A DNA stretch of 37,420 nucleotides from Candidatus Phycocordibacter aenigmaticus (GTDB taxonomy: Bacteria > Patescibacteriota > Minisyncoccia > Phycocordibacterales > Phycocordibacteraceae): positions 613,247 to 650,666 of the forward strand of contig CP174359.1 of assembly GCA_045401115.1 (NCBI GenBank), read 5' to 3'. The notes beneath the pieces are model-generated. The model did not search any database. It was not told where the DNA came from and saw nothing but the letters and a program-made list of their open reading frames with translations. Shown here piece after piece: positions 506 through 9,790 of the stretch. The translations under genes were made by a program, and so were the position numbers. Each line of letters begins with the position of its first letter. Within the stretch, counting starts at the first letter, position 1.

Positions 506-1213
506 ATGATAAACAAGGCATATATTGATATACAGAAATTGAGTCACGATGAGCAATTCAGTACTGATCTTTGTGATGCTAGAAAAAGACTGGAAATTCC
601 TGAACATGGATATAAAAATATGACCGAAGCACTTTCTCGCTACTTTGGTAAGGGACCAAGTAGTATCGATGAAATAACTGCAGAAGCAATAGCACTGATT
701 GATAAATATAGTCTGCCACACGCATACTATCATCACATGACTACGTATTTAGTCGGAGAAAGTCTCTGTAAATCCATGACTAAGGACAATAACGGAACTT
801 GTGAATTTGACCCAGATTCAGGACTAGGTCAATCTAAAACAGAAGTCAGCAATAGGTGGATTCAGGGAAATAAAGAATTCAAGACCTTATACATATCTGA
901 AGATGCTACCAGAGAGTCTATAAACAAATACTTAGATTTATTTTGGGGTGTAACAGAAGTGTCTCTAAAGAAAAGTGAGGTGACAAAACATAAAGAAGAC
1001 AAGAAACTTGATCGTGACATGGCAATTCTAAAACTGTCACAAACAAGCACAGAAGAGTTGGAAGATCTTTTGGATATAAAAGATAATATCCCGGGACAAG
1101 AGAAAAAACTTCGTCTAATCAAAAGGATTGTTGTTGAAGAATTTGGTGACGAGTTAACTATCAAGACACTAAAAAACATAATAGCCAAAACAAAAAAGTC
1201 CCAGTTTAAGTAA
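506..1213 (+). CDS. Hypothetical protein, possible C-terminal helical DNA-binding region
   Basis: 235-aa ORF with a basic helical C-terminus (RDMAILKL...TIKTLKNIIAK); no family recognised. Confidence 0.65.
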   Translation: MINKAYIDIQKLSHDEQFSTDLCDARKRLEIPEHGYKNMTEALSRYFGKGPSSIDEITAEAIALIDKYSLPHAYYHHMTTYLVGESLCKSMTKDNNGTCEFDPDSGLGQSKTEVSNRWIQGNKEFKTLYISEDATRESINKYLDLFWGVTEVSLKKSEVTKHKEDKKLDRDMAILKLSQTSTEELEDLLDIKDNIPGQEKKLRLIKRIVVEEFGDELTIKTLKNIIAKTKKSQFK

Positions 1214-1265
1214 GCAACTTAAAACAAGGATTACAAAAAACCTCACTCCAATAAGATGGTCACAT

Positions 1266-1343
1266 GATCATCTTTTTTGATGATCTGAAGGCGACTAATT
1301 CGTAGATAATCACCCCTTGGTTAGTCGCCTTGCCGAGGGGTGA
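1266..1343 (+). other. Structured element: small hairpin plus two interleaved 11-bp inverted repeats (pseudoknot or switch)
   Basis: AAGGCGACTAA 1288-1298 pairs with TTAGTCGCCTT 1321-1331; TCACCCCTTGG 1310-1320 pairs with CCGAGGGGTGA 1333-1343 (one G-U); GATCATC-T6-GATGATC at 1266-1285. Confidence 0.6.
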
Positions 1344-1349
1344 ATGTTT

Positions 1350-1520
1350 ATGAATTTCTCTAAAGCACACCTAAAGAAACTTGAGTCGATACTTCAAAAA
1401 GATTATGGAGGAAGTTTTAATGATGCTGAATTGAGAAAGATTGCTGAGCAATTGTCACGCATGACATATCTTGCTCAGAAAAACCTAAACAAAAACTTAC
1501 AAAAACATGTTAACACCTAG
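1350..1520 (+). CDS. Small helical hypothetical protein (56 aa) upstream of the recombinase
   Basis: MNFSKAHLKKLESILQKDYGGSFNDAELRKIAEQLSRMTYLAQKNLNKNLQKHVNT*; preceded by SD-like GAGGGG (1335-1340); alternative in-frame ATG at 1344; below the ORF track cutoff. Confidence 0.65.
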   Translation: MNFSKAHLKKLESILQKDYGGSFNDAELRKIAEQLSRMTYLAQKNLNKNLQKHVNT

Positions 1521-1593
1521 GAACTGGATATAGTTCGAACCTTCGGGTATTTGTTGTGTCACATATAACAATTACAAAACTAAAAGCGACAAC

Positions 1594-3318
1594 ATGAATT
1601 ATCACGATAATTACAAAGAGTATGAGTTTGCTATGTATAACAGGAAATCAAGTGAAAGCGATGAAAGACAAGCTCTCTCAATCGAATCACAAAGAGAAAG
1701 AAATCAGCAAACAGCAGAATACTACGATATAAAAATTAAACCTGAGAACATAATTGAGGAATCAAAGTCAGCGAAAAAATCTGGAATGAGACCCGAGTTT
1801 AACAAACTATTAGGCAACATACGGAAAGGAAAAATTCATGGGATTATAGTCTGGAATATAGATCGAATATCTAGAAACGCTGGTGATGCAGGTCAAGTAA
1901 TTGATCTAATTGATGAAGAAAAACTAAAGTATGTCATAACTCCTCAACAGACATTTAAAAACCTACCAAACGATAAAATGATGCTCAATTTCTACTGCAT
2001 GCAGGCAAAGGTTGAGAATGATCATAAAGGTGAGGGTGTGAAAAGAGGACTCATAAAGAAAAGAGAGATGGGTTACCCGCCACATGGTGTAGGCGTCGGT
2101 TACTTAAACGACTCAGGAGAAAAGGGATATAGAACAATCTATCCAGATCCTGAAAGATTTGAAGTAGTTAAACAACTGTTCCAGATGTATCTCACTAGAA
2201 AATATAGTGCGAGACAACTACATATACATGCCAGAGATGAATTAGGACTTACGTCAGTGCCAAGAAAGTCTATTGGTGGGACCCCAATAAGTAAAACTGC
2301 TTTTTATGGAATGTTAAGAAATCCAATATATGCAGGCTTCTTCTATGGCAAGAATGCAGAGAATGAAATGGTGCGATACGAAGTACATAAATCAGTACCA
2401 CGAATGATAACGGAAACTCAACACAAGAAAGTAATTTCACTCCTGAAAAGAAACGGAAACCCACGCCCGTGGTCACATGTAGACGAATACCCGTTCAAAC
2501 AATTCTTGAAATGTGGATCTTGTGGCGGATCGGTCACTGCTGAAAGAAAAAATCAGGTGTATTGTTTTGACTGCAAAAAGAAAACGTCAATTCTGCAGAA
2601 CAATGTTTGCAACGGGTGTGGCAGAGATATATACAACATCAAGAAAAAGACCATTATAGATATAACGTATTACCGTTGTTGTAACAGAAATACGAACTGC
2701 AAGTCGGTAGAAGGTAGTAAAACTGAGACCACTTTAACAAATAAGCTTCTAGAAGATTATGCCCAGAAATTGGCAATATCACCCGCCTTAAAAGAATGGT
2801 GTTTAGATAGCATAGGTATATTAGAACAGAAAGAGAAAAAGGAGGGTAAAAAAATAGAAAAAACATGGCTAGTGAAACTGGAAGAATACAAATCCAAGCA
2901 GGAGAAACTACTTGATGCTCATCTAAACAACCTCATTGATAATGAGGAATACAAAGCAAAGAAAGCTGAAATACAGGATAAGGTTGATACTCTGACAGCA
3001 AAAATAGACCCCATAGTGCGTAAGAAGATAGATATGAAGGAACTACAACGTAAGTTCGATATATTAACGGAATTTGCAGATGTAATTAAAAATGGAGACT
3101 ATGAGGAGAAGATTGAGGCACTCTCCTTAATGGGTTCGAACCTAACGATAACCAGAGAAAAGATTAGTATTAGCAAGACAATTCTGTATCGGGCAATTGA
3201 AAGAGGGCTTTATGAAGCAAAACTCAAAAATCCTATGTTCGAACCTGAAAAGTATCAAGCAAATAAAGAACAAACCGAAGCTTTCGCTTCGGTTTGTCCC
3301 ACTCTGCTCCGCGAGTAG
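1594..3318 (+). CDS. Large serine recombinase/integrase (resolvase, recombinase and Zn-ribbon domains, coiled coil)
   Basis: YNRKSSE catalytic Ser motif, Q..SIESQ, RPEF, DRISRN, NPIYAG, CGSCG Zn ribbon, C-terminal coiled coil. Confidence 0.93.
   Translation: MNYHDNYKEYEFAMYNRKSSESDERQALSIESQRERNQQTAEYYDIKIKPENIIEESKSAKKSGMRPEFNKLLGNIRKGKIHGIIVWNIDRISRNAGDAGQVIDLIDEEKLKYVITPQQTFKNLPNDKMMLNFYCMQAKVENDHKGEGVKRGLIKKREMGYPPHGVGVGYLNDSGEKGYRTIYPDPERFEVVKQLFQMYLTRKYSARQLHIHARDELGLTSVPRKSIGGTPISKTAFYGMLRNPIYAGFFYGKNAENEMVRYEVHKSVPRMITETQHKKVISLLKRNGNPRPWSHVDEYPFKQFLKCGSCGGSVTAERKNQVYCFDCKKKTSILQNNVCNGCGRDIYNIKKKTIIDITYYRCCNRNTNCKSVEGSKTETTLTNKLLEDYAQKLAISPALKEWCLDSIGILEQKEKKEGKKIEKTWLVKLEEYKSKQEKLLDAHLNNLIDNEEYKAKKAEIQDKVDTLTAKIDPIVRKKIDMKELQRKFDILTEFADVIKNGDYEEKIEALSLMGSNLTITREKISISKTILYRAIERGLYEAKLKNPMFEPEKYQANKEQTEAFASVCPTLLRE
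3261..3297 (-). terminator. Intrinsic terminator downstream of tRNA-Asn, embedded antisense in the recombinase CDS
   Basis: 12-bp perfect stem 3270-3281/3286-3297, GAAA loop on the minus strand, followed by TCTTTATTT. Confidence 0.7.
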
Positions 3319-3692
3319 GACTCGAACCTACAACCAACTCGTTACATGTGATCCCAATGTTTCCAAAGGGCATGGACTATATCATCACCCGCTACATAAA
3401 GTAGTGAGGGTGCGAGGCGCTTCCCAGAACATCTCTGTTCTAGTACTCCCGAAGGATAGTCTCTGAACCTTCCTTGAGAAAATATCTCAAAGCTTGGCTG
3501 CTGATTGCCCGTTCTCTTATAGAGAGTGTGGGTTTCCAGTACCGAAAACAAGCTTACGCTTGACGGCATTCACGGTTTTTTAATTTGCTTGGCAAAAATA
3601 AAACCGGAACAATTCACCTCGTTTGCGCACTAGGGTTTCCCCTAGCGGCTGCCTTGTGACAGCGAGCTGCTCTACCATTGAGCTATCGCGGA
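3307..3692 (-). tRNA. tRNA-Asn(GTT), intron-containing: 5' exon 3692-3659, 3' exon 3344-3307
   Basis: Spliced sequence TCCGCGATAGCTCAATGGTAGAGCAGCTCGCTGT^TAACGAGTTGGTTGTAGGTTCGAGTCCTACTCGCGGAG folds as a full cloverleaf with acceptor TCCGCGA/TCGCGGA, G73 and anticodon loop CT-GTT-AA. CCA is not encoded. Confidence 0.93.
3345..3658 (-). ncRNA. Group I self-splicing intron (314 nt, no ORF; P7.1/P7.2 present, IA-like) between anticodon positions 35 and 36
   Basis: P1 GCUGU-C/G-GCAGC with U.G at the 5' splice site; P2 CUAGGG-GAAA-CCCUAG; P3 CGAGGUG/CGCCUCG; Q AAUCAGCAGC; R GUUCAGAGACUA; S AUGAUAUAGUCC; P7 GACUA/UAGUC; terminal G at 3345. Confidence 0.92.
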
Positions 3693-4608: not shown

Positions 4609-4626
4609 AAACGGAGCTTTGTTTTT

Positions 4627-4655
4627 ATAAACGGCTCACCCAGTGAGCCGTTTAT
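4627..4655. terminator. Hairpin/terminator, copy 1 of AAACGGCTCAC-loop-GTGAGCCGTTT
   Basis: 13-bp perfect stem after the HTH gene, followed by a T-rich tract. Confidence 0.6.
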
Positions 4656-4675
4656 TTTAATGCTAAAATTTATAT

Positions 4676-7672: not shown

Positions 7673-8818
7673 ATGCTTTCAATAATCACTCGTGTTTTAC
7701 ATACAAAAAAAATCTTTCTACTGCCTGCAGTGTTTATTGTGCTAGTGATATGTATCGCTATAGGACGATATGTGTTTGCTCCTGAGTGTTTTGAGATACA
7801 AGAACGTGTACCCAAAGAAGGATCTCAAGGATTCCAAACATGGTACGGGGAACATATTAAAAGTTTTTATCATCGTGATAAAAAACATTGCATTCCTGAA
7901 GGATGGCGCGCTATCGGCGCAACAGAGGTTGGTGAAGGATGGGCACGTTTTGCATCTAATCAAACTGGCGTAATGGTCGCTGATGACACTTTTGCATCAT
8001 TCACTATCACCCCAAACAACACACACTATTCCCTCTTCGTCCTCTATCCGCAAAACTTTTCTGAAGCAGAACGTCTGCGGTATGCGCGTGTGATTGAAAA
8101 TACATTCAACCGTGTTGGTGCACTGTTTAACGATACCGATGCATACGAACGAACACAACACACGGTACTAATTACCGCTGGTGTTGCTAATGAACTCATC
8201 TATCCTGATCCTCGTGAAAACCTCACTATCTTTGTTCGTGAATTGGATGACCCAAGATCAGAAGAATTATTCATCCATGCTGTGGTTCATGTATACAACC
8301 GTTTTGCGCCAATTAATACCACATATCAACATAACCAAGCGCCACTCAACGAAGGAGATATACAAGAATTTGAAGCAACGTGGGCAGAAACGGCTTTTAA
8401 CACCAATGAGAAAAACCGTGCCAACCGTGTGGAATATCTTTACACTGTACATTCCGCTGTTCTGAACAAGAATTTTGAAGCTATTCCTGGTCCCCCGTTT
8501 GATGACCGTGAAGCTTTTATGAATATAAACCCACGTTTACCGGTCTATCACGATGCATCTGAGATTGATATCCAGTACAATCATTATATTCTTGCGCCAC
8601 TTATTTTTATTGCTATTGACGGCCTTCTTAATGAACGTGCGACGCAAATGAATGTAGAGCGAATACTCACTCGCATTCACTCCGGTGAAGCGACGAACTT
8701 TTTTAACGAACTGAATCGCTATATAACTGAAGAGGACACCGCTATGGTACTCAATTGGATACAAAACGCAGAACCTATTCCGCCGAGACTACTTGAGGAA
8801 GCGCTCACAATATACTAA
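7673..8818 (+). CDS. Exported/membrane-anchored zincin-like protein with degenerate HExxH (HAVVH)
   Basis: N-terminal TM; LFIHAVVHVY and downstream IQEFEATWAE resemble the gluzincin layout. Fold assignment is inference. Confidence 0.6.
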   Translation: MLSIITRVLHTKKIFLLPAVFIVLVICIAIGRYVFAPECFEIQERVPKEGSQGFQTWYGEHIKSFYHRDKKHCIPEGWRAIGATEVGEGWARFASNQTGVMVADDTFASFTITPNNTHYSLFVLYPQNFSEAERLRYARVIENTFNRVGALFNDTDAYERTQHTVLITAGVANELIYPDPRENLTIFVRELDDPRSEELFIHAVVHVYNRFAPINTTYQHNQAPLNEGDIQEFEATWAETAFNTNEKNRANRVEYLYTVHSAVLNKNFEAIPGPPFDDREAFMNINPRLPVYHDASEIDIQYNHYILAPLIFIAIDGLLNERATQMNVERILTRIHSGEATNFFNELNRYITEEDTAMVLNWIQNAEPIPPRLLEEALTIY

Positions 8819-8824
8819 ATAAAA

Positions 8825-9790
8825 TTACGTGACTACGTGCGTCGGTGTTTTGCCAGCAAAGAAATCAATAATACTTTGTCCAGCAAGGCGGCTCATTGCC
8901 TGCCGCGCCTCTATGGTAGCTGAAGCAATATGCGGCGTGAGAATCACATTCTCTAACTCGACCAAACCAGGAGTCAGTGCTGGCTCTTCTTCAAACACAT
9001 CAAGTGCGGCGCCCTGTAGGGACCCGTTTTTTAATGCCTCGACTAACGCCTTTTCATCTACCACTGGACCGCGAGCAGTATTAATAAGTAATGCGTCTTT
9101 TTTCATGTGTTTTAAACGCTCTGCATTAATGAGGTGATGCGTGGCATCCAGAAGCGGCACGTGGAGTGAGACAATATCCGAACGATTTAAAAGTTCATTG
9201 AGCTCCGGCACAAACGCAGCACCACACGCTTCTTCAAAAGCGTTATTTTGTTTGATGTCGTTATATATAACGTGTATGCCCATAGCAGTAGCTATCTCAG
9301 CTACGCGTGAACCAATACGACCCGCACCGACAATACCAAGTGTTTTATCTTTGACCTGTGTTCCCAGAAGAAGCTTTGGAGCCCAACCGATGTACTTTCC
9401 GGCGCGAGTGAAGCGATCTGCTTCCACCACACGCCGCGCTAAAGAAAATACGAGTGCCATGGTGTGTTCTGCAACGGCATCCGTGAGCACACCGGGGGTG
9501 TTGGTCACCGTAATGCCACGCTCACGCGCGGCGTCGATATCGATATTATTAAACCCAACCGCATAGTTCGCGATAATCTTTACCGACGGCGCCGCGTCCA
9601 TGACCTCGGCCGTGTACGCGTTGTTAAGCGTAGAGAGCACCGCGTCATACTCCGCATCCTGCAACACCTTAATAAGTTCGTCCGCAGTAAGTGGTCCGTC
9701 TTTTTGAGAAATCGTAACAGAATGTCCTGATTCTTTAAGCAGCGTCAATCCCTCATCAGGAATCTCGCGTGTTACAAATACGTTTGCCAT
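8825..9790 (-). CDS. D-isomer-specific 2-hydroxyacid dehydrogenase (glyoxylate reductase/D-glycerate dehydrogenase type)
   Basis: AVGFNNID, TNTPGVLT, GIVGAGRIG, INTARGPVVDE, LDVFEEEP, TPHIAS. Confidence 0.93.
   Translation of the reverse strand: MANVFVTREIPDEGLTLLKESGHSVTISQKDGPLTADELIKVLQDAEYDAVLSTLNNAYTAEVMDAAPSVKIIANYAVGFNNIDIDAARERGITVTNTPGVLTDAVAEHTMALVFSLARRVVEADRFTRAGKYIGWAPKLLLGTQVKDKTLGIVGAGRIGSRVAEIATAMGIHVIYNDIKQNNAFEEACGAAFVPELNELLNRSDIVSLHVPLLDATHHLINAERLKHMKKDALLINTARGPVVDEKALVEALKNGSLQGAALDVFEEEPALTPGLVELENVILTPHIASATIEARQAMSRLAGQSIIDFFAGKTPTHVVT

Follow-up and report, generated by a model that had tools for sequence, protein, structure and literature searches.

Near its start, a 37,420-bp window (the whole stretch of DNA that was analysed, bases 613247-650666 of the genome of Candidatus Phycocordibacter aenigmaticus) carries a gene for a large serine recombinase (LSR) whose last codons overlap the 3' end of a tRNA-Asn gene. 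The host genome is one contig of 721,362 bases, is 98% complete, and its proteins have their closest named relatives in Parcubacteria, Paceibacteria, and Minisyncoccia. We propose, with a probability of roughly 0.65, that this region is the recombinase end of an ~8.9-kb integrative island adjoining the 3' end of tRNA-Asn(GUU), which the genome encodes in a single gene split by an intron. A preliminary description of the same DNA had taken the unit to be a compact module of 2.8 kb; our analysis points instead to a mobile unit of ~8.9 kb that includes restriction-modification cargo. Positions below are those of the window, with negative numbers upstream of its first base, unless they are given as genome positions.

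Three plus-strand open reading frames (ORFs) follow each other at 506-1213 (235 aa), 1344-1520 (58 aa, or 56 aa from its second ATG), and 1594-3318 (574 aa), in agreement with the preliminary description. The third encodes the LSR. Its catalytic domain matches Resolvase (PF00239) at residues 13-160 with 76.3 bits (cut-off 23.3) and is followed by a Recombinase match (PF07508; residues 186-287, 26.8 bits, cut-off 21.1). The protein matches a PHROG integrase at E 2.6e-60. A profile of the family matches the solved integrases of SPbeta (YokA/SprA; E 9e-11, residues 9-313), TP901-1 (E 9e-12), and phiC31; the single sequence matched only one solved resolvase-type domain. In an alignment with 37 relatives, residues Y15, R17, K18, S19, R91, and R94 are invariant and the Arg-x-Ser catalytic motif is intact; among the cysteines of the putative zinc ribbon, C324, C327, C339, and C342 are invariant, and C307, C310, C362, and C369 are at least 90% conserved. 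The C-terminus (...SV.PTLLR.) is likewise conserved in relatives, which would be expected of codons that also serve as the recombination site. Two levels of identity, 86% and 78%, mark the closest relatives, which are on other contigs, and the closest in JGI data are at most 53% identical. Searching a viral contig collection with the LSR pattern gave 6 matches, none of which is a relative.

The tRNA gene is invisible to standard tools: neither ARAGORN with default settings nor Rfam at gathering scores found a tRNA in the whole window. With introns allowed, ARAGORN reported a tRNA at 3306-3692 on the minus strand and labelled it Thr(ggt). ARAGORN's own splice points violate the rules for group I introns, whereas points that keep these rules give a loop of CU-GUU-AA, and the joined exons (5' exon, 3692-3659; 3' exon, 3344-3307; both on the minus strand) form a cloverleaf that ARAGORN calls tRNA-Asn(gtt). 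The exons are separated, between anticodon positions 35 and 36, by a group I intron of 314 nt (3345-3658, minus strand). RF00028 matches at 3353-3625 on the minus strand over its full length (model positions 1-253), with 45.9 bits and E 1.6e-10, below the gathering score of 50. As read from the sequence, the last base of the 5' exon is a U that could form a G.U pair with GCAGC in the intron, whose own last base is G; the splice junctions are identical in 6 other intron-bearing tRNA-Asn genes. This is the genome's sole tRNA-Asn, as the 36 intron-less tRNAs include no tRNA-Asn, and it is because the intron splits the gene that standard tRNA finders miss it. With a tRNA split in this way, an island of this kind thus escapes standard annotation. 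An earlier paper has already noted tRNAs with group I introns in these bacteria (PMC8172020).

The LSR stop codon (3316-3318) lies beyond the tRNA discriminator base (3307), so that the two genes overlap by 12 nt. The recombinase does end inside tRNA-Asn, as had been described, with the tRNA hidden by its intron; the claim that all parts of the module are co-oriented applies to the three ORFs on the plus strand and fails for the tRNA gene, which is on the opposite strand and converges with the LSR gene.

We made some further observations on introns of this kind. The 314-nt intron has no ORF, and genus-wide the tRNA-Asn genes are either intron-less or have introns of ~190-220, 264, or 550-580 nt. 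A free-standing HNH gene of 100 aa at -6675 to -6373 (genome 606571-606873) is up to 72% identical to HNH genes inside tRNA-Asn introns elsewhere (L037, L038, L044, L085, L095, and L046). We considered this gene as a marker of a second intron or tRNA copy and rejected the idea, as no intron match was found. A second split tRNA lies at genome 319807-320076 on the minus strand. ARAGORN reads it as Arg(gcg) with a 194-nt intron; read by eye under group I rules, it has the loop AU-GGU-AA and would be tRNA-Thr(GGU), a tRNA that the genome otherwise lacks.

The placement of the LSR at a tRNA end is not peculiar to this genome. A scan of one genome per species gave at least 601 pattern matches, of which 528 encode a relative, and the best 80 were kept, corresponding to 79 distinct loci. 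The LSR frame runs 12-60 nt into a convergent tRNA gene before it stops in 37 of these loci; in a further 8 the convergent tRNA begins only 97-454 nt past the LSR. Of the other 34 loci, 3 have a frame that runs off the contig and several lie on contigs that stop within ~150 nt of the LSR stop codon; such loci do not speak for the absence of a tRNA. The recurrence of the placement supports the earlier suggestion of an integrative system with an LSR at a tRNA 3' end. Once intron-bearing tRNA genes that ARAGORN had called Thr were corrected, the targets in the 37 overlapping loci were Asn (22), Gln (10), Ser (2), Lys (1), Trp (1), and Glu (1). We built a quick maximum-likelihood tree of 58 hand-chosen proteins (all long-type loci with a complete frame plus 8 short-type proteins), in which the window LSR falls in a clade with full support; 15 of the 19 rows of this clade are at tRNA-Asn. 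Target labels change 16 times on this tree, compared with 28.4 times in shuffles (0 of 200 as low); since kin share labels, this test shows clustering only. Among 60 relatives of this genome, an LSR match adjoins a tRNA-Asn match in five: the LSR overlaps tRNA-Asn in genomes G001, G002, G036, and G016, and is split in G033. Two other loci have a distal copy of the tRNA end, and the DNA that separates it from the LSR encodes restriction genes or a ribonucleotide reductase.

Four loci (L090, L100, L101, and L102) carry near-identical recombinases, with tree branches under 0.1, and these lie at tRNA-Asn in L090 and L100 and at tRNA-Gln in L101. The junctions of this group share only the last tRNA bases with the encoded CCA. 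This suggests that near-identical recombinases switch easily between tRNA species.

The small ORF at 1344-1520 is conserved together with the LSR. Using phmmer, we found relatives of it directly upstream of the LSR in seven loci. A hidden Markov model of the core, built from a 24-sequence alignment, finds 36 members in the 79 loci, 23 of which are in the profile by construction; 35 of the 36, in 35 loci, are co-oriented with the LSR and lie at most 4.5 kb upstream of it. All members accompany the long LSR type and none the type of roughly 450 aa. The small ORF and the LSR are thus associated across genomes. Together with the distal copy of the tRNA end described below, this goes against the outcome (neither a distal attachment site nor a conserved association) that the preliminary description had named as refuting its proposal. 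At least 624 relatives of 56-94 aa are present in a public protein collection, all of them unnamed or labelled hypothetical and none with a Pfam domain. A Pfam search with 24 members gave no shared family, the lone match (SpoVG) coming from a fused or neighbouring ORF in L103. An AlphaFold2 model predicts a two-helix hairpin (helices 7-21 and 27-57) with a predicted local distance difference test score of 90.9, and a Foldseek search of the model against the PDB gave 0 matches at E <= 0.001. From its linkage and size, the small protein is the best candidate for a directionality factor of the LSR, and a regulator would fit equally well. Known directionality factors lack a common fold, and some are purely helical (PMC12286644).

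The 235-aa product of the first ORF has no match in Pfam, PHROGs, PADLOC, or NCBIfam, and homologues of it precede the small ORF and LSR in two loci only, L084 (E 1.1e-12) and L048 (E 0.0031). For both the 235-aa and the 58-aa proteins, the Protein Atlas returned unnamed clusters only; its structure rows had template modelling scores of 0.21-0.32, and those of the helix-turn-helix type are no more than weak leads.

The small ORF is preceded by marked structure. Behind the 235-aa ORF, a terminator-like hairpin at 1253-1274 with a T run after it (plus strand; consensus scan, also present in the fold) is followed by a long hairpin at 1290-1356 (plus strand), whose helix (~1297-1320 with 1333-1356) buries the start region of the small ORF by pairing a purine-rich stretch and both of its ATGs (1344 and 1350). 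Folding gave z scores of -6.72 for 1205-1360 and -6.92 for 1234-1363, values that 0 of 200 shuffles equalled. Reading of the sequence also shows a 9-bp helix (1290-1298 with 1321-1329) that interleaves with the long helix, and the earlier term pseudoknot-like is a fair label for this topology; the fold program, which is unable to model knots, favours a single long hairpin at 1290-1356. The 130 nt before the small ORF in nine homologous loci gave z scores of -7.1, -6.3, -5.8, -3.6, -3.5, -2.6, -2.5, -1.5, and +0.7, and several of these loci have a G+C-rich hairpin that abuts the start codon. The structure recurs across loci, whereas the sequence does not. By contrast, the stretch before the LSR (1512-1610), previously described as a triple-hairpin untranslated region, is unstructured beyond chance (z -0.65; 47 of 200 shuffles fold as well), and that description is not confirmed. 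Of the structures that had been suggested to control LSR expression, the one ahead of the small ORF alone is significant.

Another hairpin, absent from the preliminary description, lies within the last codons of the LSR, at 3267-3300 on the minus strand. It has 15 pairs, 7 of them G-C, and the T-rich tail TTATTTGCTT; of the terminator-like sites that our scan gave for the tRNA strand here, it heads the list and is the largest. Compensatory changes preserve it across 21 aligned loci, where its covariation is 0.322, compared with 0.144 in shuffles (0 of 500 as high), and 26 cells changed on both sides compared with 10.4 in shuffles, with the best value at zero slide. The paired share of 67.6% is lowered by one subgroup that is one column out of register. 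We infer that this hairpin serves tRNA-Asn as a replacement terminator and keeps antisense transcription from running into the LSR gene.

The proposed extent of the island comes from a repeat of the tRNA end. The preliminary description had recommended an upstream search for a distal attachment (att) site, and such a search finds an exact 13-nt copy on the same strand, 8,865 bp upstream and outside the window (genome 607686-607698), of the sequence at 3305-3317, which consists of the tRNA-Asn 3' end plus 2 nt. The distal copy begins exactly at the tRNA-end position, as a displaced flank should. As a control, we searched with the 35 other tRNAs of this genome: a repeat of at least 13 nt that covers the tRNA end at more than 1 kb occurs only twice, and one of these two cases is a 15-kb insertion with a second LSR at tRNA-Ser(GCU). 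The proposed island thus spans genome positions of about 607699-616550, or window positions -5547 to 3304 (~8.9 kb). The 8,852 bp between the copies have a G+C content (GC) of 0.384 compared with 0.441 for the genome, a value as low as in only 4 of 713 stretches of equal size. Synteny was compared in 10 relatives, of which only G007 was usable, a genus-level comparison. There, tRNA-Asn is intron-less, has no LSR, and has the best DUF2177 match 2.9 kb beyond its 3' end; the corresponding distance is 11.15 kb in our genome, a difference of about 8.3 kb.

Besides the three-gene module (235-aa protein, 58-aa protein, and LSR), the island encodes a Dam-family methyltransferase (MTase_II, E 7e-65), a type II restriction enzyme (REase_II, E 3e-67), both of them usual island cargo, and proteins of 201, 542, 77, and 198 aa, none of which has a family match. 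It also carries an IS5-like transposase fragment, the N-terminal part of whose ORF occupies 2-433 on the minus strand of the window (Pfam DUF4096, E 6.8e-14). In full this ORF has 171 aa and reaches genome position 613164, past the window start and inside the island; against the NCBIfam IS5 transposase it scores 50.5 bits, under the cut-off of 110. L051, another island, has a close relative of it (8391-8930; E 3.5e-35) that is placed and oriented alike, directly ahead of the small ORF and LSR. This ORF may be a travelling companion of the module and not a random insertion-sequence remnant.

Several observations weigh against an island of this kind. Starting with its enzyme, the zinc-ribbon match (PF13408) reaches only 19.4 bits, below its cut-off of 25.3. 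No phage, conjugation, or replication gene could be named in the island with Pfam, PHROGs, PADLOC, or NCBIfam. The only three runs with this DNA showed neither an empty site nor a circular junction; these are contig sets, possibly the source of this DNA, and contigs drop rare forms, so that the result is uninformative, while the contigs do span the distal repeat. The repeat is short (13 nt), and its distal copy is covered by an Mrr-like ORF when that ORF is read at its longest; a start at an in-frame ATG located 42 codons downstream would leave the repeat 53 nt upstream of the gene. Relatives other than G007 show poor synteny, which points to rearrangement around tRNA-Asn. Copies of tRNA 3' ends also arise in this genome in another way, through structured elements that trail 15 of 35 tRNAs (described below). 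In the other 36 overlapping loci, with upstream DNA covered for 10 kb or less, tRNA-end repeats of at least 11 nt were found only in L047 (16 nt, 11.6 kb) and L090 (14 nt, 10.3 kb), and both have an inverted copy 65-115 nt inside the repeat in the manner of trailing elements; these two distal copies mark the old tRNA flank and are not att duplications. Lastly, low GC (0.37-0.39) persists beyond the proposed end to about -8000, which means that composition leaves the left boundary unfixed.

This last point is also the first in favour of the most serious competing explanation, which we consider unlikely but well short of negligible: the foreign DNA would be a larger or mosaic unit whose far end lies elsewhere, near -8000 or in the ~35 kb of upstream defence genes, and the 13-mer would be a decayed remnant of a trailing element or a chance match. 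The upstream DNA does have the content of a variable region (type I restriction-modification, OLD-type ATPase, zeta-toxin-like kinase, Mrr-like nuclease, and HNH), genes that flank tRNA-Asn in G004, G054, and G001 are 32-34 kb away here, and a second, unrelated tRNA 13-mer occurs at -14237. The distal copies in L047, in L090, and at tRNA-Ser(GCU), moreover, belong to trailing elements. Against this stand the exact start of the distal copy at the tRNA end, the fit of the ~8.3-kb size difference from G007 with 8.9 kb, and the distal site itself, where nhmmer with the element models and filters off found no trailing-element similarity, no inverted partner is nearby, and an Rfam scan gave no match. 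The distal copy may be an att core or a last remnant; in either case the inserted DNA would lie between it and the tRNA end, and a remnant would shift the boundary by tens of bases only.

We give still less credence to a fixed, immobile remnant, in which an old integration has left an LSR and small ORF that persist without recombination activity or in another role. The missing junction reads and transfer genes would fit such a history, as would the IS5-like fragment inside the island and an LSR gene that is split at the same place in G033; set against these, the 574-aa frame is open with every residue invariant in the 37 relatives present, neither the small ORF nor either of the two hairpins is damaged, the island's composition remains very unlike that of the genome, and the relatives at 86% and 78% identity on other contigs suggest recent spread. 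That the tRNA is cargo carried at the end of the element instead of its target is very improbable, as this is the only tRNA-Asn of a 98%-complete single-contig genome (and thus no separate host copy exists), the same tRNA-Asn occurs in relatives without an LSR nearby (G007, G029, and G014), and the low-GC stretch stops at the tRNA, despite the physical overlap of tRNA and LSR genes in 37 loci and the introns and homing-endonuclease genes which show that these tRNAs have been invaded by mobile DNA.

If the region is an island integrated at tRNA-Asn, as we favour, the following sequence of events can be envisaged. The LSR would have joined an attP site, located in and just after its own last codons on the circular island, to the acceptor end of the tRNA (attB). 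The tRNA would stay intact because the end of the island carries the same 13 nt as the tRNA end. Since integration would replace the tRNA's own downstream flank, the island would supply a new terminator in the form of the hairpin that the last LSR codons contain, and the same hairpin would shield the convergent LSR gene from read-through out of the tRNA. Upstream, the ribosome-binding region and starts of the small protein would be locked in a stable hairpin behind a terminator, which might prevent expression of the small protein and the LSR for as long as the island is integrated. For the switch that would turn the LSR to excision, the small protein is the best candidate.

Defence-type genes also occupy the DNA upstream of the island, at -20000 to -5500 (L002). 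The run comprises type I HsdM and HsdS with a 933-aa ORF, followed by an OLD-family ATPase/TOPRIM protein, a zeta-toxin-like kinase, a NUDIX protein, and an Mrr-like nuclease, and its GC drops to 0.33-0.36 around -17000 to -14000. On the other side of tRNA-Asn, a stretch of ~40 nt at ~4622-4661, after a helix-turn-helix gene, has copies that are 87-97% identical at no fewer than five other places of the genome, on both strands. This dispersed repeat is partly palindromic, and in each of the three runs it is a point at which the assembly-graph contigs are broken or branched.

The elements that trail tRNA genes deserve separate mention. About 25 structured elements of 140-230 nt follow most tRNA genes of this genome (examples at genome 392608-392826, 484608-484804, 423446-423639, 432498-432695, and 313177-357; L122-L133). 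Each combines a terminator-like hairpin, an inverted copy of the 3' strand of its own tRNA's T-stem and acceptor, a conserved core, and, last, the tRNA end copied in direct orientation. Pairing between the two copies can form a helix similar to the acceptor/T minihelix. Two subfamilies can be distinguished. For 15 of 35 tRNAs, a copy of the tRNA's own 3' end, 12-25 nt long, lies within about 140-500 nt downstream. The consensus fold has 46 pairs, 28 of which show compensatory changes. The elements have no Rfam match, nothing similar was found in the literature searched, and a strict motif pattern occurs in 4 of 301 genomes of the class. A role as guide RNAs for TnpB, IS110, or a reverse transcriptase was considered and rejected, as the genome has no member of these families. 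At genome 276161-291475 (L134), ~15 kb of DNA separates tRNA-Ser(GCU) from its trailing element; it contains a shorter serine recombinase (442-aa ORF), convergent with the tRNA and 3.2 kb from it, and a 1070-aa ORF. This stretch has the appearance of another insertion at a tRNA end of this genome.

A bolder generalization can be drawn, which we offer as a speculation and would not expect to hold: a single LSR clade, widespread in Patescibacteria, might be specialised on the acceptor/T-arm end common to all tRNA genes and hop between tRNA species with few changes to the protein, with the 60-aa two-helix family as its directionality factor and with the trailing elements, as landing pads or miniature non-autonomous relatives, belonging to the same biology. 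Independently of this speculation, a whole LSR family at tRNA ends would show by what route defence and metabolic genes enter and leave the smallest and most poorly understood genomes among bacteria.

Among known systems, tRNA genes are classic landing sites of genomic islands, and their users are almost all tyrosine integrases. LSRs of the phiC31, Bxb1, TP901-1, and SPbeta type integrate into protein-coding genes or intergenic sites; their att sites are short and simple, they need no host factors, and they are valued for this reason as integration tools. The enzyme described here resembles phiC31, Bxb1, TP901-1, and SPbeta SprA in its domain order (resolvase, recombinase, and zinc-ribbon region), its similar size, and its Arg-x-Ser motif. 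It differs from phiC31-type LSRs in that the last codons of its gene overlap the tRNA target. The natural target of this family would be among the most conserved sequences in biology, and the family would come with a candidate partner for reversing the reaction. With regard to that partner, the small protein is like SprB/YotN of SPbeta and Orf7 of TP901-1 in being a ~60-aa protein encoded in the element of its integrase; searches with Pfam, PHROGs, and Foldseek gave no sequence or fold similarity to anything named. In a survey of thousands of LSRs, targets are grouped by protein gene only, and the word tRNA does not occur in the main text (PMC10083194). In the literature searched we found no description of an LSR family at tRNA ends or in Patescibacteria, though supplements may list tRNA targets.

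The preliminary description had presented the locus as the best candidate for a new system. This was overstated, as serine-recombinase integration into tRNA genes has rare published precedents (PMC3218068 and PMC4471427). The filamentous Ralstonia phages phiRSM1 and phiRSM3 use a serine recombinase at the 3' end of tRNA-Ser, with a common sequence of 13 bases (PMC4471427). Our locus shares with phiRSM the placement of a serine recombinase at a tRNA 3' end; phiRSM has a small enzyme of the resolvase/invertase type in a 9-kb phage, whereas here a 574-aa LSR belongs to an island without phage genes. Ghinet et al. (2011) described eight Mycobacterium elements with serine recombinases in tRNA-Leu, stated that such integration 'is rare', and cited phiRSM1 as the sole earlier case (PMC3218068). 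These actinomycete integrative and conjugative elements likewise tie a PF07508-type serine recombinase to a tRNA gene. They are conjugative, with replication and transfer genes, and comprise eight close recombinases at one tRNA, whereas the present family is wide, covers six tRNA species, and is represented here by an island without transfer genes.

Tycheposons have an LSR in place of a tyrosine recombinase in 27 of 937 elements, according to a preprint (10.1101/2020.12.28.424599). The only tyrosine recombinase of our genome is 70 kb from the island. In its overall plan, the island is like P4-type islands and tycheposons, with the integrase at the edge beside a tRNA 3' end, the tRNA restored, and variable cargo that includes defence genes; it is unlike those P4-type islands and tycheposons that use tyrosine integrases in that its recombinase belongs to a different catalytic family.

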